64,000 nucleotides of DNA from Acetobacteraceae bacterium (GTDB taxonomy: Bacteria > Pseudomonadota > Alphaproteobacteria > Acetobacterales > Acetobacteraceae), in assembly GCA_035500775.1 (NCBI GenBank), contig DATJWY010000068.1, forward strand, positions 567 to 64,566. Reading direction: 5' to 3'. How positions within the stretch are numbered: the stretch's first letter is position 1; every line of letters starts with the position of its first letter. Below, piece after piece: positions 751-60,376 of the stretch. Made by a program: the position numbers and the translations under genes. The notes beneath the pieces are model-generated. The model saw only the letters and a list, made by a program, of their open reading frames with translations. It did no database searches and was not told the origin of the DNA.

Positions 751-769
751 GTCGCTCCGTTCCAAACCG

Positions 770-1849: not shown

Positions 1850-1859
1850 GGTGTCACCC

Positions 1860-3341: not shown

Positions 3342-3375
3342 GGTCTTCTTCCTTCAGCCGGGCGGGCAACGAGTG

Positions 3376-3401
3376 GGGAGGCGGCCGCCTGACCGCCTCC
3401 C
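3376..3401 (-). terminator. GC-rich hairpin between flgE and flgK (possible attenuator/terminator)
   Basis: GGGAGGCGG (3376-3384) pairs perfectly with CCGCCTCCC (3393-3401) around an 8-nt loop. It sits 7 nt downstream of the flgE stop. Confidence 0.5.
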
Positions 3402-3407
3402 GCCGGA

Positions 3408-4910: not shown

Positions 4911-5019
4911 TGATTTTCGCTTCCTGGAGGGATCGTGACAGAATCGGAGACGGGGGATTTTTCCGCCGCTTCTGGCGGGCCGGCTCGGCCGGATATCCTG
5001 AGCAGGAATTCGGTCATGG

Positions 5020-5913
5020 CTATTTTTGCCCGGGAGTTTGCGCGTGCTCGCTCAGCGCATCCGCCGCGTCGCTCCGCAAAATGGTCACGGCAATTCGCCG
5101 GTTGCGCGGATCATCTGGCGTCTGCGGCACCAGCAGGTCGGTCGCCGCCCGGCCTTCGATCTTCAGCATGCGATCGGCGCTCACGCCTTTGCTCTCCAGT
5201 TCCCGGCGCGCCGCGTTGGCGCGGTCGGCTGACAATTCCCAGTTGGAATAGGCGCCATGGTTAAGCGCCTGCCCGTCAGTATGGCCGGTGATGATGATGG
5301 AATTCTGAACTGTCGCGAGAACCTGGCCGATCACGCCAAGAATGCGCATCAGCCGTGGCGTCGGCACGGCCGAGCCTGGCTGGAACATACCCTGGTCGTC
5401 GCGGTCGAAGATCTGTAGCCGCAGTCCCTCCGGCGTCATCTCCACCGAGAGATTTCCCGCCACATCCTTGAGTTCACCCTGCGCTATCATGTGCTCGACT
5501 TCGGCCTTCACCGCCTCGAAGCGCTGTCGTTCCTGCGGGTCCTTGAACAGGCCCTCCGGGTCGGCGTCATTCTCTGCCGATGCGTTATCCTGCTGGACAG
5601 AGGGACCGCCATCCTCGCTGCTATCGATGATCTTCTCGATTTTGGGGTCGGCGCCATTCAGTATGGATTTCCCGCCATCAAGCGCACCGTTGCCCCCCGA
5701 CATGTCGAGGATGGATGCCGTGTTGAAGAATTTCGCAATTCCCTTGCGCTGGCTCTCCGTCGTTGATGAGAGCAGCCACATGATCAGGAAGAACGCCATC
5801 ATCGCGGTCACGAAATCCGCGTAGGCGACCTTCCATTGACCGGAATGTTCGTTGCGCTCTTCCGCGGCACGCTTGATGACAATCGGGCGTTTCGCGTCGT
5901 TTTCGCCGCTCAT
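5020..5913 (-). CDS. motB: flagellar stator protein MotB (OmpA-like C-terminal domain)
   Basis: WKVAYADFVTAMMAFFLIMWLLSS forms the TM/plug region. ..ITGHTDGQAL...NWELSADRANAARREL.. is the OmpA/MotB peptidoglycan-binding motif. Start moved to the internal ATG at 5913 (MSGENDAKRPIV); the track ORF extends to 5976. Confidence 0.88.
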   Translation of the reverse strand: MSGENDAKRPIVIKRAAEERNEHSGQWKVAYADFVTAMMAFFLIMWLLSSTTESQRKGIAKFFNTASILDMSGGNGALDGGKSILNGADPKIEKIIDSSEDGGPSVQQDNASAENDADPEGLFKDPQERQRFEAVKAEVEHMIAQGELKDVAGNLSVEMTPEGLRLQIFDRDDQGMFQPGSAVPTPRLMRILGVIGQVLATVQNSIIITGHTDGQALNHGAYSNWELSADRANAARRELESKGVSADRMLKIEGRAATDLLVPQTPDDPRNRRIAVTILRSDAADALSEHAQTPGQK

Positions 5914-5972
5914 CCAGAACCTTGCCGCAAAAAATGAGTGCGACCAAGGATAACTCCAAAGACATTTCGCAA

Positions 5973-6674
5973 TCAAGTTTTCGCTGGGGCATTCGCCGAG
6001 CGGATGGTCAGTGTTCCCTCCAGCTTGAGCCGACGCAAGGCATGGCTGAAACTATCCACCGTATCCGCCGCGAGCGGCCGCGGCAGGCTGCGTTCCGTCT
6101 CCATGACGGCATCCAGCCGGCAAAGCTCGAGCCGCCCGCGAATTTCGACGTGACCGATTTCCGCAAGCCTCACCCGTAAGGCAAAGGCGCCGATTCGCAT
6201 GATCCTGGCGTTACGGTCGGGTCGCCAGAAAAATTCCAGCCAAGTGATCGCCCCGTCCTGCAGGATTGGCACCCGCCGTCCGATCCAGGGGGCGGGATCG
6301 CCGAGCGGCGCGGGCGGCCGCGGTGCCTGGTCCAGCAACCGAGCGACCGCCGACTCCTCGAGATGCATCGAACCGGCAAGCCGCTTCAGCCGTGTCGCCC
6401 CGAGCCAGATTTCGCCGTTCGGCCGCAACGCCGCCAGATAGAAGGCGAGCACGAAGAATCGCCCGTCCATCGGCACCAGTTCGTCCAGTCCGGCACCGGC
6501 CAGCTGCGTTTCGTTGTTCGCGTCCCCTGCCGGGAGGAGCGCGCCGATGCCTGAGCCCCGGAGGGAAGGCCCGGTGCGGCGAACCGTCTGCACATAGGCG
6601 TGGCTTGCCTCCTGCGGTGAGCCTATTTCGCCGATCGGTTCGATCCCGGCTGATTCCTCCATTTCCGGGATCAT
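5973..6674 (-). CDS. hypothetical protein; C-terminal segment resembles the FliK C-terminal (Flg_hook) fold
   Basis: 233-aa ORF with GC3-rich codons between fliG and motB. Its segment LRVRLAEIGHVEIRGRLELCRLDAVMETERS..FSHALRRLKLEG parallels VVELHPAELGRVEVRLSFQDGGIGVQMTLDRKQ..LEQQLTQAGIDLG of the fliK gene in this window. The similarity was judged by eye only. Confidence 0.45.
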   Translation of the reverse strand: MIPEMEESAGIEPIGEIGSPQEASHAYVQTVRRTGPSLRGSGIGALLPAGDANNETQLAGAGLDELVPMDGRFFVLAFYLAALRPNGEIWLGATRLKRLAGSMHLEESAVARLLDQAPRPPAPLGDPAPWIGRRVPILQDGAITWLEFFWRPDRNARIMRIGAFALRVRLAEIGHVEIRGRLELCRLDAVMETERSLPRPLAADTVDSFSHALRRLKLEGTLTIRSANAPAKT

Positions 6675-10002: not shown

Positions 10003-11576
10003 GCCCGGCTGCTTTCCGCGATCCAAACCCGGATGACCGCGACCGATTCATCCAGGCGGTGATCAACCAGCTGATTGAGTTCGGAGATGAAGGAGGCGCG
10101 GATCGCCCCCTCCATGGAGGCGAGGGTGACCATCTCCTCATGCGGCGCTTCCAGCATTTGCTGCGCCTGCCGTTCGGCTTCGAGCCGCGCCAGTTCCGTC
10201 CTCTGGTTCCGCTGGCGCCGGCGCCACGCCAGCAGGAAGCCGCCGCCCGCCGCCAGCAGAAGCACCACGGCGCCGCCCCCGACCGCCATCATGCCGGTCG
10301 GCGAGCCGGTGAGCGCCTGGATGGCGGTCGGCGTTTCCGTGCCGGGCGAGTCCTCGGCGACGAAGGGCAGTGTGTCCACCGAAATGCGGTCGCCGCGCTT
10401 TTCGTCGAAGCCGACCGCGGAACGAACGAGATCCGTCAGCCGGGTGAGTTCCTCCTGCGGCCGTGGCTGAAATTTGCCCTGCGCGTCGGTCAGGCCGTCC
10501 ACCACGACCGCGACGGTCAGGCGCCTGATCCGTCCGGGTTCGCGGATTTTTTCGTCCACGGTTGAGCTGATCTCGTAATTGATCGTCTCGCCCTGGCGCG
10601 TGGAGGTGGTGGTGGAGCGGTCGTTATTCCCGCCCACCTGCTGGTTCGGCACGTTTTGCCCGACCGTCACCGGATCGCCGGGGCGCGTCTCGTCCGATTT
10701 CTCGGAATCATTCTGGGTCTGCCGGGAGCGTTCGACCTGCGACAGCGGATCGAACTTCTCCTCCCGCTGCGTTTCGCGCGTTTCGTCGATATCCACCGAG
10801 GCGATCGCCCGGACCTTGTCATGCCCGACGAACGGCTCCAGCAGAGCCAGCACCGCGCGCTGGATCTTCTGCTCCTCGGCCGCCTTCATCTCGTCGATCC
10901 GGCTTACCGCCAGGGCGTCCCCGTCTTCGGCGGCGAGCACGACGCCGGAGGGATCGAGGATCGACACATCCTCCTGCTTCAGCCGCGGCACGGCGCCCGC
11001 GACCAGCAGTCGGATCGCCGCGGCCTGGGACGGGGTGAGGCGCTCGGGGCCGGACATGGTGACCGCGACCGAGGCGGTCGGCTTCGGCGTATCCCTTGCG
11101 AAACTCTCGCGCTCGGGTAGCACGATATGGACCCGTGCCGTCCTGACCCCATCCAGGGTGGAGATCGTCCGCGCCAGTTCCCCCTCAAGCGCGCGCAGGC
11201 GCTGCACCCGCTGCATGAACGAGGTCATGTTCATGGGGGATTGCGAATCGAGCAGCTCGTAGCCCGCCCCGTTCAGATGCGGCAGGCCGGAGGCGGCAAG
11301 CTCCATGCGCACGCGCGCGACCTGCGAGTTTGGGATCAGGATCGTCGTGCCGTCGCCCCGGGCATCAGCCGGGATCTTCAGTTCCTCAAGCCGCTGCATG
11401 ATCCGTCCGCCCTCCGCGGGATCGAGCCCGGAATACAAGATCCCGAGCGGTTCCGCCGGGCGGGCGGCGATCCAGGCGATCAGGGCGAGAACAGTTATCG
11501 CAACGACGCCAAGCGTGCCCAGTTTCGCGGGAGGGAGCCGCAGGGCGGCGTTCTTGAGGTTTGCGAATTGCTCCAT
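9999..11576 (-). CDS. fliF: flagellar MS-ring protein FliF
   Basis: 525-aa ORF with an N-terminal TM (LGVVAITVLALIAWIAA), a YscJ/FliF periplasmic region (..ELAASGLPHLNGAGYELLD..LEGELARTISTLDGVRTARVHIVLP..) and a C-terminal TM. Confidence 0.93.
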   Translation of the reverse strand: MEQFANLKNAALRLPPAKLGTLGVVAITVLALIAWIAARPAEPLGILYSGLDPAEGGRIMQRLEELKIPADARGDGTTILIPNSQVARVRMELAASGLPHLNGAGYELLDSQSPMNMTSFMQRVQRLRALEGELARTISTLDGVRTARVHIVLPERESFARDTPKPTASVAVTMSGPERLTPSQAAAIRLLVAGAVPRLKQEDVSILDPSGVVLAAEDGDALAVSRIDEMKAAEEQKIQRAVLALLEPFVGHDKVRAIASVDIDETRETQREEKFDPLSQVERSRQTQNDSEKSDETRPGDPVTVGQNVPNQQVGGNNDRSTTTSTRQGETINYEISSTVDEKIREPGRIRRLTVAVVVDGLTDAQGKFQPRPQEELTRLTDLVRSAVGFDEKRGDRISVDTLPFVAEDSPGTETPTAIQALTGSPTGMMAVGGGAVVLLLAAGGGFLLAWRRRQRNQRTELARLEAERQAQQMLEAPHEEMVTLASMEGAIRASFISELNQLVDHRLDESVAVIRVWIAESSRA

Positions 11577-43937: not shown

Positions 43938-44723
43938 ATGTTGCGCGCACTCGGCATCGCCGCGACCGGCATGCAGGCTCAGCAAACCAACGTGGAAGTC
44001 ATTTCCAACAACATAGCGAACGTCAGTACGACCGGATTCAAGAGGAGTATGGCCGAGTTCCAGGATCTGCTCTATCAGAATGCCGATCGCGTCGGCACTG
44101 AATCGTCGGAAACGGGAACCATCCTGCCGACCGGCACGCAGATCGGCCTCGGCGTGCGCAATTCCGGCGTCAATCGGATCACCTCGCAGGGCACGCTGAC
44201 GCAGACGGACAACAAGCTCGACGTCGCGGTCGATGGTCGCGGCTATTTCGGCGTCCTTCTGCCGAACGGAGACACCGCCTACACGCGCGACGGAAGCTTC
44301 AAATTCTCCGACACGGGGCAGATCGTCACGAATGAGGGGTATCAGGTGCTGCCCGGCATCACCATCGATCCGCGTGCCAAGGATGTGACGATCAACCAGG
44401 CGGGTGAAGTGGTGATGACCGATTCGAGCGGCAAGCAGCAGACCATTGGCCGTCTGCAACTCTATATGTTCGCCAACGAGGCGGGGCTCGAAGCACAAGG
44501 CGGCAATAATTTTCTTTCCACCACCGCGTCCGGTGATCCGATCCAGGGTTTGCCGAATGATCCGGGCTTTGGCTCCATCCGCCAGGGTTATCTCGAATCG
44601 TCGAACGTCAATGTCGTGCAGGAGATCACTTCGTTGATCCAGGCGCAGCGATCTTACGAGTTGAACAGCAAGGTCATCGAAGCCGCTGATCAGATGATGC
44701 AGACCACATCCCAGCTCCGGTAA
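43938..44723 (+). CDS. flgG: flagellar distal rod protein FlgG
   Basis: MLRALGIAATGMQAQQTNVEVISNNIANVSTTGFKRS.. and ..EITSLIQAQRSYELNSKVIEAADQMMQ... 261 aa. Confidence 0.95.
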   Translation: MLRALGIAATGMQAQQTNVEVISNNIANVSTTGFKRSMAEFQDLLYQNADRVGTESSETGTILPTGTQIGLGVRNSGVNRITSQGTLTQTDNKLDVAVDGRGYFGVLLPNGDTAYTRDGSFKFSDTGQIVTNEGYQVLPGITIDPRAKDVTINQAGEVVMTDSSGKQQTIGRLQLYMFANEAGLEAQGGNNFLSTTASGDPIQGLPNDPGFGSIRQGYLESSNVNVVQEITSLIQAQRSYELNSKVIEAADQMMQTTSQLR

Positions 44724-44725
44724 GG

Positions 44726-45190
44726 ATGATGCGCATGCAGGGTTTCCGCTCCATCGCTGCCTATATCGGCGTTGTCCTGTTCGTCGGGCTGTCGTCGGCC
44801 AGGGCAGGGGACGAGGCCTGGTACGCGACCGAGATGCTCATGCCAGGCGACGTTGTGCACGCCGAGAATGTCCAACTTAGGTCGTTGACCCGGCCGATCT
44901 ATGGCGCCTTGTCAGCCGACAAAAATCCGGTTGGGCTCGAGGTCAAGCACCATGTTGTCGCCGGACATCCGCTGACTGTCCATGATGTGGGGCCGATCTG
45001 TCTCGTCCATGCCAACGAGACCGTGCAGGTCCATTGGCGGGTCGGTAATCTGTCGATGGTCCTGAGTGGCCGTGCTCTGGAACCGGGCGCAGCCGGGCAA
45101 GAGATCCGTGTGCTCAATCCGTCCACCTCGCGCACCATCAGCGGCATTGTCGTCGGGCCTGACACTCTGGAAATACAGCCCAACCAATGA
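44726..45190 (+). CDS. flgA: P-ring assembly chaperone FlgA
   Basis: Signal peptide plus the C-terminal SAF-like ..GRALEPGAAGQEIRVLNPSTSRTISGIVVGPDTLEI. It lies between flgG and flgH. Confidence 0.8.
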   Translation: MMRMQGFRSIAAYIGVVLFVGLSSARAGDEAWYATEMLMPGDVVHAENVQLRSLTRPIYGALSADKNPVGLEVKHHVVAGHPLTVHDVGPICLVHANETVQVHWRVGNLSMVLSGRALEPGAAGQEIRVLNPSTSRTISGIVVGPDTLEIQPNQ

Positions 45191-45921
45191 GGAAAATCCT
45201 CGGCCTGCTGCCGTTCATGCTGTCGCTCGCGGCATGCGACACGTTCGATCATTTCCAGAAACCGCCGGATATGAGCAGTCCGGGGAAGATCAATGCCATC
45301 CCGGCAACCGCCTACCAGTCCCAACCATTGATGGCGGCAATGCCTCCGCCGGAGCTTGCTCCACATGGTTCGCTTTGGCTGCCTGGTGCGAAAACTTTCT
45401 TTCGTGATCCGCGAGCCCGCACCATCGGTGATCTTGTGACCGTTGCTGTCTCCATTCAGGATCAGGGTCAGTTCAACAACCAGACGCAGTTGCAGCGCAA
45501 CACCTCGAATTCTGTGGCCATCAATAATGTGTTCGGTCTCGGCACGTGGATCGGGCACATGATTCCGGGTATCGCCGATACCACTCCCACAGTGAATACC
45601 ACTGGGTCCGAGAACACCAACGGGAAGGGTCAGATCCAGCGCAGCGAGACGATCGTGACAAATGTCGCGGCGACCGTCGTCAGCGTCCTGCCGAACGGCA
45701 ATCTGGAGATCGCCGGCAGTCAGGAGATCCGGCTCGATAACGAACTGCGGGACATCGAGGTGCGTGGCATTGTCCGGCCGGAGGACATTGCGTCGGACAA
45801 TACCATCCCGTCTGACCGCATCGCCGAGGCGCGGATCAATTATGCCGGAAGGGGTGTCTCCTCCGATCTGCAACGGCCGAAATGGGGGCAGGACGTTCTC
45901 AGTCGGTTTGAGCCGTTCTGA
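45187..45921 (+). CDS. flgH: flagellar L-ring lipoprotein FlgH
   Basis: Lipobox LSLAAC. ..ARTIGDLVTVAVSIQDQGQFNNQT.. and ..LPNGNLEIAGSQEIRLDNELRDIEVRGIVRPEDI.. are FlgH motifs. ATGA overlap with flgA. Confidence 0.93.
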   Translation: MRKILGLLPFMLSLAACDTFDHFQKPPDMSSPGKINAIPATAYQSQPLMAAMPPPELAPHGSLWLPGAKTFFRDPRARTIGDLVTVAVSIQDQGQFNNQTQLQRNTSNSVAINNVFGLGTWIGHMIPGIADTTPTVNTTGSENTNGKGQIQRSETIVTNVAATVVSVLPNGNLEIAGSQEIRLDNELRDIEVRGIVRPEDIASDNTIPSDRIAEARINYAGRGVSSDLQRPKWGQDVLSRFEPF

Positions 45922-46123
45922 AGTCTGTAAACGAAGGATGAAAAAGGGCGTCCGGTCAGGTGTAATTAAATAAACAAAATCAGTCTCATAAAAGAAACAA
46001 TTTTGATTGACTTTGCCTGTCCGCGGATGCGATCAAATACCCGCACCGCAGCATGGCAAAAGCCGACTTCTTGAGAGGTTTGGCTGTGGGTGCTCCCCGC
46101 AACGCAGTCTCAGGAGGTCGATC

Positions 46124-49397: not shown

Positions 49398-50150
49398 TCA
49401 GGGGAACAGTGCATCGATCGCGTCCTGCGAGGCCTCCCCGGTCGGTGCTGAGCCGGTGCCATTCAGCAGGGCGTCGATCGCATTCTGTTCGAGGCCGTTC
49501 TCCGTCGGCCCGTTCAGGAGATGCGAATCCGGTCGATCATCCACGCTCGGCGCTTCCGCACCTGTGAGGTCAACAGATCCTTCCCAAAGTGCCGCGAGCG
49601 AGATGATGCGCTGCTCGATATAGTTCAGCGCCTGCACCACCTTGCGGATGCGTTGGCCCGTGAGATCCTGGAAGGAACAGGCCATCACGATATCCATCGC
49701 CGCGTTGTCGATCACATCGACATGGCGCAGCACCTCGGGCGACAGGCCGGGTTCGGCGCGGATGTGCTGGATCGCGTCCTGCGACCGTTCCGCCGCCCCC
49801 ATGATCTCGACCGCGGCCCGCTCTGTCGCGCTGACGACGCTGTCGAGTTCGCCGGAGGCACAGGTCAGCCGGGAATGCGCCTGCTCGCCGGGGATCAGCC
49901 CGGCCACTTCCGACCGCGTCTCCGCGATCAGCCGGCCCATGCCTCGCAGCTCGTCCTGCAACAGCTTGAGCTGGTGCTGCGCCTCAGCTTCGCCTCCCGG
50001 GCGTACCGTGCCGAGGCGCGCGACTTCATGATGCAGCTGCGCGGTGATCTGTTCCAGCCGCGATGCCATGGCCGCGGCGGCGGCGTAGGTATTTTCGCCC
50101 AACGCCGCACCGCCGGGAACGGATGCGGCGCCTGCCCCTGTTGCGTTCAC
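49398..50150 (-). CDS. cheZ: CheZ-like CheY-P phosphatase
   Basis: ..IVMACSFQDLTGQRIRKVVQALNYIEQRI.. contains the CheZ catalytic DLTGQ context. A long helical hairpin precedes it and an acidic C-terminal peptide (..SQDAIDALFP) follows. It lies immediately downstream of cheY. Confidence 0.75.
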   Translation of the reverse strand: MNATGAGAASVPGGAALGENTYAAAAAMASRLEQITAQLHHEVARLGTVRPGGEAEAQHQLKLLQDELRGMGRLIAETRSEVAGLIPGEQAHSRLTCASGELDSVVSATERAAVEIMGAAERSQDAIQHIRAEPGLSPEVLRHVDVIDNAAMDIVMACSFQDLTGQRIRKVVQALNYIEQRIISLAALWEGSVDLTGAEAPSVDDRPDSHLLNGPTENGLEQNAIDALLNGTGSAPTGEASQDAIDALFP

Positions 50151-50167: not shown

Positions 50168-50527
50168 TCAGATGACCGTGGCGATCTTCGCCTTCAGCGT
50201 GTCGGCGGTGAACGGCTTGACGATGTAGTTGCTGACTCCGGCCTTCTTGGCCTCGATCACGTTTTCTGTCTTGCTCTCCGCCGTGACCATGATGAAGGGC
50301 AAGGGCGCGAGCGCGCTGTCCGCCCGCACTTGCTTGAGCAGTTCGAGTCCGGTCATCGGCTCCATGTTCCAGTCGGAGATGACCAGATCGAACTTTCCCG
50401 AGCGCAGCTTCGCGAGCGCCTCGCTGCCATCGGCCGCCTCATCGATGTCGGCGTGTCCGATCTGACCGAGGAGGTTCCGCACGATCCGGCGCATGGTGGC
50501 ATAATCGTCAACAACGAGAATTTTCAC
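50168..50527 (-). CDS. cheY: chemotaxis response regulator CheY (single receiver domain)
   Basis: GTG at 50527 after GGAGA gives [64 protein letters not shown]. The DD, D and K receiver residues are in place. Confidence 0.9.
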
Positions 50528-50598
50528 GGTGTCTCCGCCAGCAAGCGATAAAAGAGAGGCTCCGACCATTGCGGTCGGAGTGAGCCTATCTGACAGGA

Positions 50599-50628
50599 TT
50601 TCGCGAAGGGTTAATGTCGCCGGCGAAA
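50599..50628. promoter_or_regulatory. inverted pair of GCGAAA boxes upstream of cheY
   Basis: TTTCGC (50599-50604), 18 nt, GCGAAA (50623-50628). It lies about 70-100 nt upstream of the cheY GTG. Confidence 0.4.
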
Positions 50629-50694
50629 ATCCGATTTTGCCATTGAGTGTGGCGCGTGGCGGTTGCCGCCGGCAAGTCAACCAGAGGGCTGACT

Positions 50695-51933
50695 TCAGAG
50701 GGCGAACAGCGCGTCCAGTTCGTCGAGACCGGGGCCCAGGCCGAACCAGGAGGCATTGCCGATCTCGCCCCCTTCCGGGTCCAGGCGATGACAGAACCCC
50801 CAGCACGGCGCCGCGGCCAGCACCGCGGCTTCGGTCCTGGCCGCGGCGCCGTAAGCGAGCGCGTAGAGATCGGCCGGGTCAGGGCTGTTTTTGAGCAGGA
50901 GGCAGAGTCGCCGCGCCGCGCCTGCCTGCCGCGCCAGGAAGACGGCCTGGTCGCTGCCCAGACTAACCGGCGCCGCGCCGCCGCCTTCCCGGAACAGCAC
51001 GGCCTCGCCACGCCCCTTCAGCGCGGCGCGCAGGCCCTGGATGAGGGGGGTGCCTTTGCCCCGCGGCTCAATCGCGAGCAGGGCCTGGCCCGGCGCGGCG
51101 CGCAGCCGTGCCGCCGCTTCCGGCCAGGATTCCAGCATCTGATAGCCGGGTCGCGTCGTGGCACCGCCCAGGAAGCCGCTCGGGAGCACGCCAAGCGCGT
51201 CGGCGATCCGGCTGGCAAGGCAGGTTTCCCCATCCGTGCAGGCCTGGATCAGCGCGTAGCGCAGATCGTCGGAAATCTCCGCCGCGAGCAGCGCGTCGAG
51301 ATGCTCGGCGATGCCGAGGGTCAGGAACCGGAAGCGTTCCCAGCCCTCTCCCGCCTGCCACATCTCGGGCGGCAGCGGCGCGTCCGGCCGGAGAGGGGCG
51401 CCGCAGACCGTGGCGGCCAGGGCGAGGCAATCCGGCGCCGGCGTGAACGGCCAGGCGACCGCCCCCTCCTCGCCCCAGAGCAGCAGCCAGGGGGTTGCCG
51501 GGGCCGCGTCCTGTGGTGATGCCCCGGCGAGGCCGTCAGGGCTCGAAAGGATGCTCGCGGCCTGCGGCGGCATGATTTCCGGCAGGCCAGGCACGGTCCG
51601 CACGCCGCTTTCGTCGCGCAGGAGCGTCAGGACGCCGGGGGCAGCCGCGATGCGAGCGCGCAGGCCGGATATATCTGGCGCTGTCACGACGTGGCAGGCC
51701 TGCGGGTCTGGCACCAGCACCCCGGTTTCCGGGCCGCGCAGCGCGACCGCACCACCCGGCAGCAGGACGATGTCCGGGCGCGCGGTTTCGGCCGGCGGCA
51801 CGGTGATGCAGAGGTCCCGCAGCAAGGCGGTGTGCTCCGTCTCCGCCATTCCCGCCCAGTCGCGGTCGATGCGGCGCAGCAACCCGATCGCGCCCGGGTT
51901 GCCGAGATCAAGCTCCCTGATAGTTGCCAGCAT
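50695..51933 (-). CDS. hypothetical protein (412 aa)
   Basis: Long ORF with consistent GC3-rich codons upstream of cheY on the same strand. I see no recognisable motif, no P-loop and no TM. The overlapping plus-strand ORFs look like shadows. Confidence 0.5.
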
Positions 51934-52539: not shown

Positions 52540-53214
52540 ATGACGCTCATCCTCCGCCCGCTCCTCAACACGACCGCTACCTTGCTTGAGCAGCTGTGGC
52601 ATGCACGCATGCGGAAGCCGGTGAGCGTGCTGTTGCCCGATTGGATGGACCCAGGGCTGACCGATGCCGTGGCTGACCCCATCGCCACCGAGACGGAGAC
52701 GGCCTTGCGCGCCAGGCTGCTGGCCATCGGGGCGCAGCTTCGCGCCGTCAGCCCGGTCGCCACGGCGCGGGATGTGCTCCGCCGCCCCGACGCGGATGCC
52801 GGACGGCGCGCCGCTCTTCTTGCCCTGGCCGGCGCTGCGGAGTGGACGCGTGTGGCGAGGGCGCCAGGGAGCTTCCGCTGCACGCGCATATCGGCCGATG
52901 GACTGACCTACCGCATCGACATGGAGAGTGCTGGCGGCGCCGGGCATGCCGAGCACGCGGCCATCGCCCTGCGGCAGACGCTGCATGTGGAGGGGGCAGA
53001 GCGGCCCCGCTCCCTTGTGCAGACCGCCGACACGACCTGCTTCTCCCTGCTCTGCGGCGTGCGCGATCTGGTCGTGCTGCTGGTGCGGGAGGGAGAGGGG
53101 CATCTGGCCAGGGAAGTCGCTCAGCTCGGCGGGTTGCCGGCCGAGTTGCTGCCGGAGGCGCTGCTGCCGGGAACGATGCCGGACGTGGCGGGTGCGCGGC
53201 GCCTGGCGGGGTGA
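52540..53214 (+). CDS. hypothetical protein (224 aa)
   Basis: ORF with GC3-rich codons. No family recognised. Confidence 0.4.
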   Translation: MTLILRPLLNTTATLLEQLWHARMRKPVSVLLPDWMDPGLTDAVADPIATETETALRARLLAIGAQLRAVSPVATARDVLRRPDADAGRRAALLALAGAAEWTRVARAPGSFRCTRISADGLTYRIDMESAGGAGHAEHAAIALRQTLHVEGAERPRSLVQTADTTCFSLLCGVRDLVVLLVREGEGHLAREVAQLGGLPAELLPEALLPGTMPDVAGARRLAG

Positions 53215-53415
53215 CGCAGCGGCCAGCCATGCCGGGAACATGGCCCGCTTCCCTGACCGGCGATAAGCACGGTCAGGATTTTTGCCTGTAGAAACCGCAT
53301 GTCAGGCTGATCCTTATCTCGTCACGTCGATAAATCGCCCTTCATATGGTCAAATGCGCCAGATCATGACATCTTCGGCCGGGCGGTCTTTATAAATGCA
53401 CGGATTTAGAGCATT

Positions 53416-54438
53416 ATGCGGCAGGCAGGCGAGCGGATCCCTTTCACGAACGCGACGTTTCGCTACCCGGATGGCGCCTGGCCGAACCGGCTGGCGCTCG
53501 GCCTCACCTTCCTCGGCTGGATCGGCGGGATCGTTCTGCTGACGCTGCGGTCCTGGCCGCTGAACGCTGTGGGCGTGCTCCTGACCGCGCAGGCGCTCGT
53601 CTATTCCGCCTATTTCATTCATGAATGCGCGCATGGCGCCTTGTTCACCACGGCGCGCGACAATGACCGGCTGGGTCGGGCGCTGAGTTGGCTGAATGGT
53701 GCGTGCACTCTTTCCTATGCCGGACTGAAGCATAAGCACATGCGCCACCACGTCGACCGGCTGGATGTGGTCAGCGTCGATTACCGTAAGGCCCTGCTTC
53801 GCTGGCCGGCCTGGGCGCGCCGTATGATGCTCGCCCTGGAATGGGCCTATGTGCCGGCGGTGGAATTCCTGATGCGCGGCCTCGTGCTGGCCGACGTCTG
53901 GCGGGAAGCGCCGGGGCGTACGGCCGCCACCCTCGCGGCGCGCATCGCCGGCTTTGCCGTGCTTGGCGTGATCTCGCCGAAGGCGCTGGCGCTCTATGCC
54001 CTCGCCTACATCCTGTTCCTGCACGTTCTCCGCTTCATGGATGCGTTTCAGCATACATACGAGGTGGTCGCGGCTGAGCATGCCGACGCGCTTGTCGCGG
54101 CGCGTCAGTACGACCGGGCCTATGAGAACGAGAACACCTATTCCAATCTGGTTTCGGTGCAGCAGCCATGGCTCAACCTGCTGACGCTGAATTTTGCTTA
54201 CCACAACGCGCATCACGCGAAGCCGGCTGCACCGTGGCACCAATTGCCGACGTTGCATCAGCGGCTGTACGGCCGGGATGAGCGGCAGGTGCTGCCATGT
54301 CGCACGCTGTTCGCCACCTATCATCGCAACCGGGTGAAACGGGTGCTGAGTGAGGATTACGGCTTAGTGGCGCCTGCCGGCGACCGCGCAGCGGATTTCC
54401 TCGGGGCTGTCGGCGTCTCCTTCCTTACCGCCGTCTAA
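53416..54438 (+). CDS. membrane fatty-acid desaturase family protein
   Basis: Three histidine boxes: HECAH, HKHMRHH and HNAHH. Hydrophobic N-terminal segments are present. Confidence 0.85.
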   Translation: MRQAGERIPFTNATFRYPDGAWPNRLALGLTFLGWIGGIVLLTLRSWPLNAVGVLLTAQALVYSAYFIHECAHGALFTTARDNDRLGRALSWLNGACTLSYAGLKHKHMRHHVDRLDVVSVDYRKALLRWPAWARRMMLALEWAYVPAVEFLMRGLVLADVWREAPGRTAATLAARIAGFAVLGVISPKALALYALAYILFLHVLRFMDAFQHTYEVVAAEHADALVAARQYDRAYENENTYSNLVSVQQPWLNLLTLNFAYHNAHHAKPAAPWHQLPTLHQRLYGRDERQVLPCRTLFATYHRNRVKRVLSEDYGLVAPAGDRAADFLGAVGVSFLTAV

Positions 54439-56072
54439 GCCGCCACGGCGCGTCGCCAGTCGCGAATGGCCGCGAGTTCCCGCTCTGGCCGCTCGGTTAC
54501 CACCTCCAGCGCCCCGGCGAAGATCCGCCCCTCATTGCCGTCGAGCGAGATCGTATCCCCCTCGTCCAGCACGCGCTCGCCGATCCGGCACTGCTGCCGC
54601 GCGAGGTCGATGGCAAGGGCGGTACAGCCGACCAGGCACACCTTGCCGAGTTGCCGCGCCACCACGGCGGCGTGTGAGGTGCGGCCGCCGGTCGCGGTCA
54701 GGGTGCCTTCCGCCCGGGCGAGGCCGGCGATGTCCTCGGTCGCGATTTCCCGCCGCACCAGGATCACCTTCTGGCCGGCTTCTGCCATGCGCTCGGCGGC
54801 TTCCGGACTCAGTGCGATGGCCCCGGTGGCGATGCCAGGGCACGCCACCCGCGCGGTGGCCAGCAACTGCCCGGATTCGGCGGCCAGCCGGGAGCGCGTG
54901 ATGCTGTCGAGGTCGATGGCGCGCAGGCGCGCGAGTGCCTCCGCGGGCGTGATCAGCCCCTCCTCCACCAGTTCGACGGCGATGCGCAGCGCCGCCCAGG
55001 GCGTCGTCTTGGCATTGCGTGTCTGCAGCAGATAAAGCGAGCCGGATTGCAGGGTGAACTCGAAATCCTGCGCGTCGCCGAACAGCGCCTCCAGTGTGTG
55101 GCAGGTGGCTTCCAGCTCGGTCACCAGTAGTGGCAGGCGGCGGCTCAGCCGCTCATTGTCGTTCAGCACCTGTCGCCCGGCGACGACATCCTCGCCTTGG
55201 CCATTGAACTGGAAATCGACGTAGAGCGTGCGCGCGCCGGTCGCCGGATCGCGGGTGAAGCCGACCCCGGCGCCCGATGCGCCGCCGGCATTGCCGAACA
55301 CCATGGTCTGCACGGTCACGGCGGTGCCCATGCTGTCGGCGATGCCGTTCAGCTTCCTGTAAGTCACCGCTTTCGGCGCTTCCCAGGAGGCGAACACCGC
55401 TGCCGAGGCACGGCCGAGCTGCACGTACACGTCCTCGGGGAAGGGTTCGCCCGCGAGGTCTTCGTACCGCTTCAGCATACCGAAGGTCATGGCGCGCAGG
55501 GTGATGTGATCGAAGCCGCCGGCTGGCTCGTCCTGGGCGTTGCCCGTGACCGAGGCGATCACGGCATCGAACGGCTCGGCCGGCAAGCCGGCGACCACGC
55601 CCGCGAATTGCCGTACCAGCCGCCGGTAGCTGTCCCAGGCGAGGCGTGGATTACCGGTCTGGCGGATCAGGCCCTCCACGGTCTCCTGGTTCAGGCCGAT
55701 ATCGAGGACCGTCTCCAGCATGCCCGGCATGGAAACCGGGGCGCCGGAGCGCACGGAAACCAGCAGCGGCCGGCGCGCCGAACCGAAGCCGAGACCGCTG
55801 ACCTGCTCAAGACCGGCGATGCCGCGCCGGAGCGCCGCGGCCAGGGTCGCGTCCGGTTTCGGCTGGCGCCTCGCGGCGTCCGGTGACGCGCCGGCCGCGT
55901 GGAACCGCTGACACCATCCGGTCGGCAGCGCGAAGCCGGGTGGCACACGCAGGCCGGCAGCCGCCATGCGCATCAGGTTCCAGGCCTTGTTGCCGACTTC
56001 CGCCGCACCGCCGCGCGGCAGCACCACGCCCGGCCCAAAAGGGTAGAGATCCGGCGTCCGATCTTCACTCAC
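54435..56072 (-). CDS. pyruvate-phosphate-dikinase-like enzyme with only the ATP-grasp and phosphohistidine domains (no PEP/pyruvate TIM-barrel domain)
   Basis: Colinear with the PPDK N-terminal ~535 aa. Matching blocks: ..VGNKAWNLMRMAAAGLRVPPGF.., ..LLVSVRSGAPVSMPGMLETVLDIGLN.., ..NPRLAWDSYRRLV.., ..GTAVTVQTMVFGN.., ..NGQGEDVVAG.., ..LYLLQTRNAK.., and the catalytic-His motif TGGRTSHAAVVARQLG. It ends right after ..ISLDGNEGRIFAG... Start at GTG 56072 (or 56081), after GGGGAG. Confidence 0.8.
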   Translation of the reverse strand: MSEDRTPDLYPFGPGVVLPRGGAAEVGNKAWNLMRMAAAGLRVPPGFALPTGWCQRFHAAGASPDAARRQPKPDATLAAALRRGIAGLEQVSGLGFGSARRPLLVSVRSGAPVSMPGMLETVLDIGLNQETVEGLIRQTGNPRLAWDSYRRLVRQFAGVVAGLPAEPFDAVIASVTGNAQDEPAGGFDHITLRAMTFGMLKRYEDLAGEPFPEDVYVQLGRASAAVFASWEAPKAVTYRKLNGIADSMGTAVTVQTMVFGNAGGASGAGVGFTRDPATGARTLYVDFQFNGQGEDVVAGRQVLNDNERLSRRLPLLVTELEATCHTLEALFGDAQDFEFTLQSGSLYLLQTRNAKTTPWAALRIAVELVEEGLITPAEALARLRAIDLDSITRSRLAAESGQLLATARVACPGIATGAIALSPEAAERMAEAGQKVILVRREIATEDIAGLARAEGTLTATGGRTSHAAVVARQLGKVCLVGCTALAIDLARQQCRIGERVLDEGDTISLDGNEGRIFAGALEVVTERPERELAAIRDWRRAVAA

Positions 56073-58020
56073 CGAGCACACTCCCCATCACATGATCCCG
56101 GGCGCCGAGAGCGGCGCGCTTGAGGCTGTCAGCGGCTTCTTCCAGGCTGTTGCCGATGGTGGTGTAGAGGTGCAACTGCCGGAAATCCCGCGCATGGCGC
56201 AGGGCCGTGACGGTCAGGGCGCGCTGGACATCATCCGCCTGGTGCTCGAGTGCGAGGATGCGGTCAACCGCGCTCAGGAAATCCTCGGTATCCTCCCGTG
56301 CGACCTTCACGCCCTGCCCCGGGCTCGCGATGGTGGCGGCGTCGGCGAGGGTCTTGACCCATTCCTGCGTGCCTTCCGCCACCAGGTCGGCGAGTCCGGC
56401 CAGCGCCTCCAGCGCCTCGCCCCCGGCTTCGTTGCTGGCGAGCAGGCCGAGCAGGAAGGCGGCCTCCTCCATCGCGTCGGCGGCGTCGTCGGCCGTCTGG
56501 GCGAGGCGCAGCAGCGGCGCCTGCTCCGGCCGCCGCCGCGCCGCGTCCCGTATCTCGCTCACCTTCTGGTCGGCAGCGTGCTCGAAATCCCGGGCGCGGC
56601 GGGCAAGCTGCTCTGCCGTCATGGGCGAGAGGTCGCGCAGCCCCTCGCGCAGCACCGTCGCGATCTCGAACGTCAGGGCGGCGTGCTCGACAAGGACACG
56701 CAGCAGGCGGCGGCCCTCATTGCTGACATGGGCATGCAGCTCGGTGCGGATGCGGTCGTGGATCATTCCCGCCGACTGCCCGGCGCGCAATCCCTCGCTC
56801 GCGGCGCGCAGCACGAAGCAGACGTAGTCGCGTGCCGCCGCGTCGCCGAGCACGTCGCAAAGCCGGTCGCCGAAATGCAGGGCGGAGCTGGCCGCCACCT
56901 CGATCGCCTGATTGATCAGCCGCGCGCCGCCAAGGGAGAGGAAGCCACGATGGCCGACCTCCTTATCCGCCGCCCAGCGCAGCACGGCGATGCGGTCGGA
57001 GCCGCGCAGGAAGCCACGGAGTTCCTTGCGGGCGCGGTTCCAGTCGATCAGGAAGACGAGGCGGGAGCCGACGAATTCGAGGCAGTCGCGCAGCGCCGCG
57101 TCGTCCGCCGCTTCGTGGCGGCCGATCGCCATCTCGAAGCTCAGGCCGGAGGCGGCGCGTTCGACCGGCTGTTCGCCGTCGTTCCAGGAAAAGTCGCGCG
57201 CGGTCAGCATGTCCTTGAGGAAGCGCAGCCGCTCCGGGTGGATATCCGTATAGGTGATGGTGACGCAGCGGCCTTCCACGTGCACGACGATGACGTGCGC
57301 GTCCGTGGTGCCGATGTCGTTCTGGATGACCAGCCGGTTCCCGGCCCGGGTGGCTGTGGTGGCGAGGCCGGGATGGTCGAATTTCAGCGGTGCGGTGCGG
57401 TTGAGGCCGCGCATGAAGGCGGCAACCAAGGGTTTATCCGCTTCGTCGAGGCCATAGACGGCGGCGCCGTCCAGCGTTGCCTCGGCAAGCCCCGCCTGCA
57501 GCGCGTTGAGCTGGCGATGCAGGTCCATGACCAGCAGATGCAGGCTGTCTGTCCCGGCGCGGTTGGCGCTGGTCATGGCGAGGATCGCCGGACCGTCCAC
57601 CAGGTCGTCCGCCGCGCCGGGGAGATCGGCGAACCTGGCCTCGAGGCGCTGTTGCAGCGCGGCGGTCGTCGCGTCCGGGCCGGCTTCCAGCACCGGCACG
57701 GCCATCACCCGCATATCCTGCGCGATGCGCGCCAGCATCCGGGCGGCGCCCGGGATGCGGATGCGATCGCCTTCCCGCCTTGCACCGGCCACAGCCGTAT
57801 CGAGCCCGATATCGTCGATGCCGGCGGCGAGGCGCTCGCGTTTCAGCGATGGCGCCGGATGATCCGGGTTCTCCGCATGGGCGATCGCCATTTGCAGTAG
57901 CGAGAACAGGTATTTGACCCGGTCGTTCGCCGCGAGGGCGGCATTGACGCGCGAGGAGCGCCTGAGCGCGGTCTCGCCGATGGCATCCAGAACCGCCGCC
58001 TTCATGCTGTCCACGTCCAT
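56065..58020 (-). CDS. large uncharacterised protein with a C-terminal PhoU/DUF47-like helical repeat
   Basis: About 650-678 aa. The C-terminal ~200 aa carry two E..AD repeats (..DFEHAADQKVSEIRDAARR.. and ..LALEHQADDVQRALTVTAL..LEEAADSLKRAA..) typical of PhoU_div/DUF47. The N-terminal ~450 aa are unassigned. Its stop overlaps the PPDK-like start (GTGAGTGA). The start is uncertain (58020, 58005 or 58101). Confidence 0.55.
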   Translation of the reverse strand: MDVDSMKAAVLDAIGETALRRSSRVNAALAANDRVKYLFSLLQMAIAHAENPDHPAPSLKRERLAAGIDDIGLDTAVAGARREGDRIRIPGAARMLARIAQDMRVMAVPVLEAGPDATTAALQQRLEARFADLPGAADDLVDGPAILAMTSANRAGTDSLHLLVMDLHRQLNALQAGLAEATLDGAAVYGLDEADKPLVAAFMRGLNRTAPLKFDHPGLATTATRAGNRLVIQNDIGTTDAHVIVVHVEGRCVTITYTDIHPERLRFLKDMLTARDFSWNDGEQPVERAASGLSFEMAIGRHEAADDAALRDCLEFVGSRLVFLIDWNRARKELRGFLRGSDRIAVLRWAADKEVGHRGFLSLGGARLINQAIEVAASSALHFGDRLCDVLGDAAARDYVCFVLRAASEGLRAGQSAGMIHDRIRTELHAHVSNEGRRLLRVLVEHAALTFEIATVLREGLRDLSPMTAEQLARRARDFEHAADQKVSEIRDAARRRPEQAPLLRLAQTADDAADAMEEAAFLLGLLASNEAGGEALEALAGLADLVAEGTQEWVKTLADAATIASPGQGVKVAREDTEDFLSAVDRILALEHQADDVQRALTVTALRHARDFRQLHLYTTIGNSLEEAADSLKRAALGARDHVMGSVLGE

Positions 58021-58171
58021 TGCAGGTTGTGGGCCGCCCCTTAACAGGCCGGGCGTCGAGCCTCCTCGATTTCCGTCAATGGCGCATCCCAGGCCATTCA
58101 CGCCGTCCAGACAGGGGGGCGCTGGCCCCGGTTTCTTGCGCCCTTACCGGGGATCGGCTAAGGGCGCTCGC

Positions 58172-59026
58172 ATGAGCCAAGCCACCGGTCTTCAGCCAAG
58201 CCACGAGACTCTCGAACTGTTCTCCAACGTCACGGGCGCGGCCCGCCGCCGCCTTGCGTTGCGGGATTTTCGCGAGGGGCTCGGGCTCTGGCGATTGTTC
58301 TTCACCCTCGGCTGGCTCGACATCAAGCTCAAATACCGCGGCTCGGTGATCGGCCCGTTCTGGCTCACCTTGTCCACCGCGGTGATGGTGTGCGCGCTCG
58401 GCTTTCTCTACTCGCACCTGTTCAAGATGGTGCTGCGGGATTACCTGCCCTACCTGGCGTTGTCGATTATCCTGTGGAATTTCCTGTCCGCCATTGTCGG
58501 CGAAGCCTGCACGAGCTTCCTGCAGGCGGAAAGCATGATCCGCTCGGTGCGGATGCCGTTCTCGGTCCACGCCGCCCGGGTGGTCGTGCGCAACGTGCTG
58601 ACCCTGCTGCATAATTTCGTGGTCATCGTCGCGGTTTTCGCGATCTTCGCCATCGTTCCGCGAACCTCCGCCCTCCTCGCCATTCCCGCCTTCGGGCTCT
58701 GGATTCTCGACGGCTTCGCGGCTTGCCTGCTGCTCGGCGCCTTCTGCGCCCGCTTCCGGGATGTCCCGCCGGTGGTTGCCAGCGTCATGCAGATCGCCTT
58801 CTTCGTCAGCCCGATCATCTGGAAGCCGGAATTGCTGGGTGCCGGCGCCAAATGGCTGGCATTCAATCCGTTCTTCACCATGCTTGAGATCGTTCGCGGG
58901 CCGCTGCTCGGCTATGTTCCCGGGGTCAACATCTGGGCGAGCGCGTTCGGCTTCAGCCTGCTGCTCTGCGTCGGCGCGTGGATGCTGTTCGCCCGGGTGC
59001 GCGGGCGGCTCGCCTTCTGGATCTGA
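58172..59026 (+). CDS. ABC-2 type (Wzm/KpsM-like) polysaccharide-export permease, no adjacent ATPase
   Basis: ..LFFTLGWLDIKLKYRGSVIGPFWLTLSTAVMV.. and six hydrophobic segments match the typical ABC-2 permease. ATG at 58172. Confidence 0.8.
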   Translation: MSQATGLQPSHETLELFSNVTGAARRRLALRDFREGLGLWRLFFTLGWLDIKLKYRGSVIGPFWLTLSTAVMVCALGFLYSHLFKMVLRDYLPYLALSIILWNFLSAIVGEACTSFLQAESMIRSVRMPFSVHAARVVVRNVLTLLHNFVVIVAVFAIFAIVPRTSALLAIPAFGLWILDGFAACLLLGAFCARFRDVPPVVASVMQIAFFVSPIIWKPELLGAGAKWLAFNPFFTMLEIVRGPLLGYVPGVNIWASAFGFSLLLCVGAWMLFARVRGRLAFWI

Positions 59027-59104
59027 CCGGTTGATGCAAGGGGGGCTTCCCCTTGCCTCCCGGCGTGGGCGTGAACCAGTCCCCCGCCGGCACGCCGCCT
59101 GAAG

Positions 59105-60376
59105 TCAGGCGGTGTGGGCCACGGCCCGCAGCTCTTCCGCCCCACCAGCGGCAACCGGCGCCGCGGTCGCCTGAGCGCCTGGCCGCGCCGTCAGCGCCTG
59201 CAGGATCTCCCGCACGCTGCAAACGCCGACAATGCGCTCGCCATCCGCCAGGATAACCGGATAGCGGCTACCCTGCTGCACTTCGATCAGGTCGCTCAGC
59301 GCCATGTCCGCCCGCGCGAGGTGGAACGCATCGAACGGCCGCGCCGGTGCGGGCGCCTCGGCTGGCGGCAGCAGCGGCCGCGTCTCGCCCCCGACACTCG
59401 CGCTCAGCGCCCGGCCGGCTTGATCCAGCACCAGACGGAACTCACCGGCCGGGCCGAAGACCAGGGCGTCCCGGTCGCGGCTCAGGGCTGAAAGCGGGGT
59501 CATCACGCTGCGGCCCTTCAGCACCGGCAGCGGGTTCATGTGGTGGACGAAGCTCGCCACGTAGTCATTGGCCGGACGCAGCGCGATGTCCTCGGGGGTG
59601 CCGTCCTGGATGATCCGGCCGCCTTCCAGGATCGCGATGCGGTTGCCGAGCTTCATCGCCTCGTTGAGGTCGTGGCTGACGAACAGGATCGTCTTGTGCA
59701 CGGCGGCCTGCAGCGCGAGCAACTCGTCCTGCAGCTTGTTGCGGATCAGCGGATCGAGGGCTGAGAACGGCTCGTCCATCAGCAGGATGTCGGCGTCGGT
59801 CGCGAAGGCGCGGGCAAGGCCGACGCGCTGCTGCATGCCGCCCGAGAGTTCCTGCGCGTAGCGGTCGGCCCATTGTTCGAGCCCAACCAGATGCAGCTTC
59901 TCGTCAACGATGCGCCGACGCTCGCTCGATCGCATGCCGCGCAGTTCCAGGCCGAGCCCGACATTCTCCCGCACCGTGCGCCAGGGCAGCAGGGCGAATT
60001 GCTGGAATACCATGGCGACCGCCTCGGTGCGCACGCGGCGCAGGGTGGCGGCGTCGCAGGTGGCCAGATCGACCATGCCGTCCCGGTGGTGCACGAGGGC
60101 GTTGCCGCGCGTCACCGCATTAAGCCCATTGGCGGCGCGCAGCAGCGTCGATTTACCGGAGCCGGACAGACCCATCAGGACGCAGATCTCGCCCCGCTCC
60201 ACCTGGAGGCTGGCGTTGGAGATGCCGAGGATCAGTCCGGTCTTGGAAGCCACATCGCCGCGGCTCGCGCCGGCATCCATCATCCGCAGCGCCTCGGCAA
60301 CCTTCGGATCTTCGGCGCGGGCGCGCTTCTTGCCGAAAACGATATCAACATTGCGGAAGTCGATGGCGACGGTCAT
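59105..60376 (-). CDS. proV: glycine betaine/choline/proline ABC transporter ATP-binding protein with a C-terminal CBS pair
   Basis: Walker A GLSGSGKSTLLR, signature LSGGMQQRVGLARA, Walker B ILLMDEPFSALD, followed by a CBS-like tail. The ATG at 60376 overlaps the permease stop (ATGA). Confidence 0.9.
   Translation of the reverse strand: MTVAIDFRNVDIVFGKKRARAEDPKVAEALRMMDAGASRGDVASKTGLILGISNASLQVERGEICVLMGLSGSGKSTLLRAANGLNAVTRGNALVHHRDGMVDLATCDAATLRRVRTEAVAMVFQQFALLPWRTVRENVGLGLELRGMRSSERRRIVDEKLHLVGLEQWADRYAQELSGGMQQRVGLARAFATDADILLMDEPFSALDPLIRNKLQDELLALQAAVHKTILFVSHDLNEAMKLGNRIAILEGGRIIQDGTPEDIALRPANDYVASFVHHMNPLPVLKGRSVMTPLSALSRDRDALVFGPAGEFRLVLDQAGRALSASVGGETRPLLPPAEAPAPARPFDAFHLARADMALSDLIEVQQGSRYPVILADGERIVGVCSVREILQALTARPGAQATAAPVAAGGAEELRAVAHTA

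Follow-up and report, generated by a model that had tools for sequence, protein, structure and literature searches.

A truncated pyruvate phosphate dikinase and its PhoU-tailed partner protein form a widespread, split or fused module of soil bacteria

The subject of this study is a pair of overlapping genes on the minus strand of a 64,000-nucleotide (nt) stretch of an Acetobacteraceae genome (GenBank assembly GCA_035500775.1, contig DATJWY010000068.1, positions 567 to 64,566), which is referred to as the window and whose numbering is used below. According to the list of open reading frames (ORFs), the two genes constitute an isolated operon at positions 54435-58005. The first gene (56065-58005) encodes a protein of 646 amino acids (aa), here called the partner, which is composed of a novel N-terminal region (aa 1-411; 56773-58005) without a relative in sequence or in the fold of its AlphaFold2 model, and a C-terminal DUF47/PhoU-like six-helix domain (aa 412-646; 56068-56772) recognized by PF01865 and Foldseek. 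The second gene (54435-56072) encodes a short kinase of 545 aa related to pyruvate phosphate dikinase (PPDK), with an ATP-grasp nucleotide-binding domain (PPDK_N; aa ~26-360; 54993-55997), which was delimited with Pfam and a residue-level alignment to 9pzl and 1kbl, and a swivelling phosphohistidine domain (the PEP-utilizers mobile domain; aa ~397-523; 54504-54884), delimited with PF00391 and a match to 2fm4.

The translational-coupling junction between both genes (56065-56086) was read directly from the sequence and agrees exactly with the description in an earlier note on this DNA. The string GTGAGTGA at 56065-56072 holds the GTG start codon of the PPDK-type gene (56070-56072) as well as the TGA stop codon of the partner gene (56065-56067), the overlap amounts to 8 nt, and a Shine-Dalgarno-like GGGGAG (56081-56086) is located 8 nt 5' of the GTG. 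The same note had assigned a large protein to the upstream gene, which is correct, but its length of ~650 aa and its end at position 58020 have to be revised: in all homologs the first residue aligns with the one encoded by the ATG at 58005 (MKAAVL... in the window, MK(T/A/S)... in general), and the feature therefore ends at 58005 and encodes 646 aa.

Pfam detects PPDK_N (E=3.7e-38) and PEP-utilizers (PF00391; E=7.6e-20) but no PEP-utilizers_C in the 545-aa protein, which reaches 501 bits on the PPDK model TIGR01828 (cut-off 843) and covers positions 18-523 of its 865. It is colinear with residues 19-513 of the C. symbiosum PPDK (E=7e-113), the alignment ending at ~513-529 in the linker that follows the His domain, and the isolated His domain 2fm4 matches its phosphohistidine domain (E=1e-25). 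All equivalents of the C. symbiosum ATP-grasp residues K22, R92, G101, R135, E279, D280, D321, E323, Q335 and R337 are kept. Thr465 and His467, which correspond to T453 and H455 of C. symbiosum, lie within GGRTSHAAVVAR (G-G-x-T-S-H motif), and the motif TGGRTSHAAVVARQLG is present with the catalytic His at residue 467 (codon 54672-54674). The conservation of the nucleotide-site and phosphohistidine residues strongly supports an intact kinase half, and the protein would thus be predicted to autophosphorylate His467 with ATP and Mg2+. In RefSeq the partner is named "DUF47 family protein" or "phosphate transport regulator" and the kinase "PEP/pyruvate-binding domain-containing protein". Current annotation also uses "pyruvate, phosphate dikinase" for the kinase, and both of its names mislead, the phosphoenolpyruvate (PEP)/pyruvate-binding domain being precisely the absent one. 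An interpretation as an anti-phage defence system was dropped, as no PADLOC model matches the partner or the short kinase at E<=0.01.

The last ~200 aa of the partner match positions 10-205 of the 214-position model PF01865 (PhoU_div/DUF47) with 28.7 bits (cut-off 24.4; E=1e-6), and they contain the E..AD-type repeats FEHAAD, DDAADAMEE, LEHQADD and LEEAAD, including the residues E475/D479 and D510/E513. The AlphaFold2 model of the full-length protein has a mean predicted local distance difference test (pLDDT) score of 86.6, with ~90 over the DUF47 part, and predicts for the tail a PhoU-like fold of six helices in two three-helix repeats. Foldseek superposes this tail on the DUF47 crystal structure 3l39 with a template modelling (TM) score of 0.83 (E=8.5e-5; root-mean-square deviation 2.6 A) and on the PhoU structures 4q25 and 1t8b with a TM score of ~0.69.

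For the N-terminal part of the partner, neither Pfam at E<=10, searched with the whole region and with three sub-segments, nor NCBIfam returned a match. The PDB sequences likewise gave nothing at E<=10, whether the query was one sequence or a profile built from 15 sequences. An AlphaFold2 model of this domain by itself (pLDDT 85; predicted TM score 0.75) consists of long helices forming a helical bundle and a small antiparallel alpha/beta sandwich. Its best Foldseek match in the PDB has E=0.07 with TM scores of at most 0.23, and the Arp2/3 p34, PDK and ACT-like domains that surfaced at this level (E>=0.07) were judged meaningless; with the full-length model all matches are confined to the DUF47 tail. 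A cryptic PhoU repeat was likewise rejected, since local hhalign comparisons between sub-segments gave probabilities below 1%. The ~410-aa N-terminal region of the partner is a domain family without a described relative. The architecture that had been deduced beforehand is borne out, namely a PPDK-type ATP-grasp and phosphohistidine enzyme without the C-terminal TIM barrel, a PhoU_div/DUF47-type tail with E..AD repeats and an N-terminal part without recognizable match, which spans the first ~410 aa of the partner.

The partner family is large and of uniform size: clustering at 90% identity yields more than 3,768 clusters, nearly all of them 631-650 aa long, and a profile of the N-terminal domain matches 1,247 representatives at 50% clustering. 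Identity between phyla amounts to 55-60%. Over 96 representatives with identities down to 32%, about 27 positions are at least 97% invariant; His, Asp, Arg and Asn are frequent among them, and their place is outside the DUF47 part. The invariant polar cluster comprises R120, T204, H211, H237, D254, H256, R259, D321, N323 and R326, and a second tier of residues is 90-97% conserved (D153, H156, D161, H163, N229, D230, K327 and H352). With this pattern, a site for catalysis or for the binding of metal or phosphate seems likelier than a sensor surface under loose constraint.

The distribution of the two genes documents their close association. A scan with one genome per species retrieved 575 relatives of the partner, and the neighbourhoods were read in the best 80 loci, 75 of which contain sequence downstream of the partner gene, while the other five end at a contig edge. 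In all 75 informative loci, representing about five phyla, a short PPDK gene follows immediately downstream on the same strand, it always ends near residue 530-545, and the overlap of 8 nt is identical at 52 of the 75 junctions. The pair is present in Alpha-, Beta- and Gammaproteobacteria, Acidobacteriota, Binataceae and Vulcanimicrobiaceae, including Acetobacteraceae, Beijerinckiaceae, Sphingomonas and one gammaproteobacterium. The closest relative of the window partner stems from a metagenome-assembled genome (MAG) of Acidisphaera (Acetobacteraceae; 76% identity), and an intact pair with 40% identity is located on a plasmid of the betaproteobacterium Aquabacterium olei. A search starting from the PPDK side retrieved the partner directly upstream in Bosea and Rhodoblastus.

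Actinomycetota carry both proteins as one fused polypeptide. The first fusions found (P0292, P0303 and P0333) were extended by a search with P0292 to 86 distinct fused proteins of at least 1,150 aa (~1,200 aa), many of them from Solirubrobacteraceae on contigs of up to 3.5 Mb. Their domain order is N-terminal domain, DUF47, ATP-grasp and His domain, the linkers of ~40 aa are variable in sequence, and the GGxTSH motif is kept in 80 of the 86. The adjacency in 75 of 75 loci, the conserved junction and the natural (Rosetta-stone) fusions identify the pair as one functional unit, and it is strongly supported that partner and short PPDK are functionally inseparable; the concern that the genes might not be co-conserved elsewhere, which had accompanied the original description, is thereby removed. 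The partner gene and the short PPDK gene constitute a widespread module, split or fused, in soil bacteria. Two candidates for additional architectures (P0473 and P0475) were recognized as frameshift-garbled fusions. A third protein of 700 aa (P0380), in which residues 5-279 are a partial N-terminal domain of the partner and residues 350-684 a phosphate-selective porin O/P domain (Porin_O_P), was also discarded as a probably chimeric gene call, though it hints at a gene for a phosphate porin next to the module in that organism.

The genomic surroundings of the module hint at phosphate, polyphosphate and Mg2+. Clustering of all neighbours in the 80 loci revealed no third gene that is universally conserved with the pair, but several genes recur. 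Orphan copies of PstB (TIGR00972; 342-373 bits, from just below to above the equivalog cut-off of 343) are encoded near the module in several loci. In three of these (L072, Bosea and Rhodoblastus) the copy immediately precedes the module in the same orientation, eight further loci have one at a distance of up to 7 kb, and pstSCA was not seen beside any of them. The position directly upstream corresponds to the slot in which phoU follows pstB in pst operons. These PstB paralogs, which adjoin the module and in some loci also mgtA, carry an N-terminal extension of ~35-65 aa (L087, 3153-4025; L088, 3119-3982; L072, 2230-3072; L065, 5816-6757) and may represent a regulatory family of their own. The gene mgtA for a Mg2+ P-type ATPase (TIGR01524; 920-1158 bits) is a direct neighbour, in varying orientation, at 11 of 84 loci, among them loci of Alphaproteobacteria as well as Acidobacteriota. 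Between mgtA and an orphan pstB just downstream of the module, MAGs of Rhodopila contain a 228-aa ORF (L025, 13048-13734) that by eye resembles a VIT1/CCC1-type metal transporter and would be a second metal-transport gene of this cluster.

A variant of the partner (eight clusters) combines an N-terminal CHAD domain (27-254) with the partner sequence (350-999), and in both contigs examined it has a gene directly downstream and mgtA adjacent. In L089 this following gene encodes a short PPDK; the second contig breaks off within it, and there it has no annotation. The reading frame of the L089 kinase (10020-11558) is lost just before the phosphohistidine motif (AGLAVAAGAPPTPPSWPASS), owing either to a frameshift in the assembly or to decay of this copy. 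The binding of polyphosphate by CHAD modules is well established (PMC6537752). Furthermore, a PPK2 gene lies beside one fusion, and a gene of the phospholipase-C/alkaline-phosphatase family is located near the Methylocella pair. Pho-box-like sites, defined as direct repeats with at least 11 of 14 matches to CTGTCAT-N4-CTGTCAT, were found upstream of the module in 8 of 83 loci, and in 7 of 301 control regions, which are the upstream regions of other genes at these loci (odds ratio 4.5, p=0.006), a soft statistic given the phylogenetic non-independence of the loci; the site of Methylocella reads TTGTCGTAAAACTGTCAT. A Pit gene did not turn up among the neighbour clusters and annotated loci, without a search aimed at Pit. 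The link to phosphate sensing that the earlier note had considered possible has gained strength from the orphan PstB, MgtA and PPK2 neighbours, the CHAD fusions and the Pho-box-like sites.

The canonical PPDK (EC 2.7.9.1; TIGR01828; structures 1kbl and 1dik) is colinear with the window kinase over ~18-525 (E~1e-113), but its C-terminal PEP/pyruvate TIM barrel of ~340 aa is absent from the kinase and not supplied by the partner; by analogy, a swivelling-domain mechanism as in PPDK would be expected. In rifampicin phosphotransferase, phenylphosphate synthase, PEP synthase (PEPS) and PigC/RedH, an ATP-grasp domain and a swivelling His domain feed a third, family-specific module, and in phenylphosphate synthase such modules occur as separate subunits. 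The sequence similarity of these alternative-acceptor dikinases to the window kinase is weak, with 45.5 bits on the rifampicin phosphotransferase model NF041857 (cut-off 999), where only a 75-aa ATP-grasp stretch matches, and 63-87 bits on PEPS models, and their acceptor modules are unrelated to the partner.

One of the most similar systems is VadK (Rv1127c), the truncated PPDK of M. tuberculosis, which autophosphorylates His422 with ATP and Mg2+, modulates the methylcitrate cycle, interacts with its enzymes and is encoded next to prpR/prpDC (PMC13400623; EMBO Rep 2026). VadK and the window kinase share the ATP-grasp and phosphohistidine domains, the conserved catalytic His motif and the lack of the PEP/pyruvate domain, and the size of the VadK-type two-domain proteins (~490-540 aa) is comparable with the 545 aa found here. 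However, VadK is described as standing alone without mention of a PhoU/DUF47 partner (PMC13400623), whereas the window kinase has an obligatory or fused 646-aa partner, and methylcitrate-cycle genes (prpR/prpDC) are found neither beside the pair in the window nor as recurrent neighbours at the 84 related loci. The NCBIfam model for the VadK type (NF004531/PRK05878; 534 positions) has a cut-off of 456 bits. The window protein reaches 429 bits on it, the PPDK next to the CHAD variant 425 bits, and a set of three relatives and two fusion halves 404-431 bits. All of these proteins remain below the cut-off and score higher on the N-terminal half of canonical PPDK.

The tail of the partner (235 aa) shares the six-helix fold and the E..AD-type motifs with the DUF47/PhoU proteins (PhoU_div, YkaA/PitR-type), but typical representatives are single-domain proteins of ~205-240 aa encoded beside pit or pstSCAB, whereas the partner has 646 aa with a novel 410-aa region. 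PhoU interacts with PstB-linked transport as well as with PhoR, a histidine kinase, and does so at low Mg2+ too (PMC9239213), and a PhoU-like tail paired with a kinase is also found here. The kinases differ in type, PhoR being a HisKA/HATPase protein and the enzyme of the module PPDK-derived, and no pstSCA was seen beside the nearby pstB copies. A full-text literature search retrieved no paper on a DUF47/PhoU-type partner paired with PPDK, PPDK_N or a truncated PPDK. The proposal of an undescribed enzyme system accordingly holds for one part: the truncated PPDK as a His kinase is already known from VadK (2025-26; PMC13400623), and the partner and the pairing are undescribed in the literature searched.

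Based on these data, we propose that the pair represents one obligate phosphotransfer machine of phosphate, polyphosphate or Mg2+ homeostasis with the partner as its acceptor or specificity subunit, a reading that we favour with a confidence slightly beyond even. The machine is split into two translationally coupled proteins in the window and is a single ~1,200-aa fusion in Actinomycetota. As judged from homology, the short PPDK would bind ATP in its ATP-grasp domain and phosphorylate His467 on the swivelling domain, by analogy with partial reactions 1 and 2 of PPDK (ATP + Pi + E-His -> AMP + PPi + E-His~P; Pi, inorganic phosphate; PPi, pyrophosphate). The phosphohistidine domain could then swivel onto the partner in place of the PEP/pyruvate TIM barrel, where the cluster of H211, H237, D254, H256, R259, D321, N323 and R326 may serve as the acceptor or catalytic site, and the phosphoryl group would be passed to or through the partner, either to one of its residues or to a bound anionic ligand (Pi, PPi or polyphosphate). 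Finally, the genomic context suggests that the DUF47/PhoU-like bundle might tie the state of the machine to the phosphate or metal status or to a PstB-type ATPase, comparable with PhoU, which bridges PstB and the histidine kinase PhoR (PMC9239213).

Several observations weigh against this proposal. VadK needs no protein of this kind for its function and apparently acts on metabolic enzymes (PMC13400623), and by this precedent the kinase of the module may serve other targets than the partner. Genes related to phosphate are neighbours at only about 10-25% of the loci, most neighbourhoods being unrelated, and the enrichment of Pho-box-like repeats is soft for the reason given above. The window locus itself has no pstB, mgtA, ppk or recognizable Pho box near the pair, the best candidate in its own upstream region showing 8 of 14 matches, which equals the background level. 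The evidence from the genomic context is therefore suggestive and not decisive.

We regard an alternative explanation as rather unlikely but by no means negligible. The short PPDK would be a VadK-like protein histidine kinase acting on other targets such as metabolic enzymes, and the partner merely a sensor or regulator that reads Pi, polyphosphate or metal via its DUF47 domain and is neither acceptor nor catalytic subunit. Autophosphorylation of VadK and its interaction with methylcitrate-cycle enzymes in the absence of a DUF47 partner (PMC13400623) agree with this scenario, as does the known regulation of a histidine kinase by PhoU-type proteins (PMC9239213), and fusion and co-conservation suit a sensor-kinase pair equally well as an enzyme. 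On the other hand, the His/Asp/Arg cluster of the N-terminal region, which is retained down to 32% identity, is unusually invariant for a sensor domain, and the same is indicated by the identity of 55-60% between partners from different phyla. Moreover, a conserved third gene that could represent the target is missing beside the pair, and the kinase clade falls below the VadK equivalog cut-off.

A further explanation, to which we assign a distinctly low probability, regards the module as a swivelling-phosphohistidine enzyme of inorganic phosphate-anhydride (PPi/polyphosphate) metabolism, with Pi, PPi or polyphosphate bound to the partner domain. It would catalyse, for example, the reaction ATP + Pi + polyP(n) <-> AMP + PPi + polyP(n+1), where polyP denotes polyphosphate, and in reverse might regenerate ATP from AMP in one step with polyP and PPi. 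This explanation retains its place because of the CHAD fusions, the PPK2 neighbour, the PhoU-like Pi-binding tail, the invariant His/Arg-rich site and the intact ATP-grasp residues for the handling of Pi and PPi. PPK1 makes polyphosphate via a phosphohistidine intermediate. However, the module has no similarity in sequence or fold to PPK1, PPK2 or PPK3, and the window partner lacks a CHAD domain; any polyphosphate chemistry of the module is a conjecture. The recently described archaeal PPK3, which had been considered as a relative, belongs to an unrelated thymidylate-kinase-type family. If the explanation were true, the module would constitute a fourth, unrelated class of polyphosphate/pyrophosphate kinases, widespread in soil Acidobacteriota, Alphaproteobacteria and Actinomycetota.

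The remaining two explanations, both of which the earlier note had named as possible objections, together account for a very small share of the probability, and a modest remainder belongs to none of the stated explanations. In a split canonical PPDK the partner would supply the PEP/pyruvate-binding function and the pair would interconvert pyruvate and PEP. The adjacency of the genes and the absence of exactly the third PPDK domain are the only points in its favour, whereas the partner shows no PEP-utilizers_C signal at any threshold, has a predicted fold of helical bundles and a small alpha/beta sandwich instead of a TIM barrel and lacks any Foldseek or sequence match to a PPDK, PEPS or EI C-domain. 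The very improbable split PPDK is essentially refuted by this fold and by the absence of PEP-utilizers_C. A decaying remnant, i.e., a truncated ppdK pseudogene of 545 aa that overlaps the upstream gene by accident, for which nothing but the truncation itself speaks, has next to no probability and is refuted, together with a chance adjacency, by the uniform length of the 120 nearest homologs (all 519-564 aa), the same gene end in 75 loci from several phyla, the intact catalytic residues and the conserved junction.

PPDK-derived "half enzymes" have only just been recognized as histidine kinases with the description of VadK, and an obligate partner that is adjacent, usually translationally coupled and sometimes fused makes the question of acceptor or regulator testable with two purified proteins. 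Members of the family are abundant in bacteria of acidic soils, peat and bogs, habitats in which phosphorus and magnesium are in limiting supply. The connections with PhoU, orphan PstB, MgtA, CHAD and PPK2 suggest a cytoplasmic sensing or handling of phosphate or polyphosphate outside the textbook PhoR/PhoB scheme.

The operon is framed by two genes on the plus strand, a fatty-acid desaturase gene that converges on its 3' end and a gene for an ABC-2 (Wzm-like) permease that diverges from its 5' end. The convergent stop codons overlap (TAG of the short PPDK on the minus strand, 54435-54437; TAA of the desaturase on the plus strand, 54436-54438), which leaves no intergenic room for terminators between both genes. 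The divergent intergenic region (58006-58170) is, according to the ORF layout, the presumed promoter region of the operon, but a sigma-70 promoter consensus was not found in it, and the counts of sigma-70 promoters and intrinsic terminators did not exceed those of shuffled sequences. Rfam searches yielded no RNA element, neither at E<=1 for positions 53000-59500 nor at the gathering score for the whole 64-kb window, which is also devoid of tRNA and tmRNA genes. The GC content is 0.58-0.62 at positions 1-6000 and 44001-46000 compared with 0.63-0.70 over most of the window, and both low-GC stretches may be acquired segments. A 412-aa ORF without Pfam match (50695-51933, minus strand) is located directly upstream of a gene for a CheY-like response regulator (50168-50806), and a CheZ-like phosphatase gene (49398-50150) lies on the same strand as these two.

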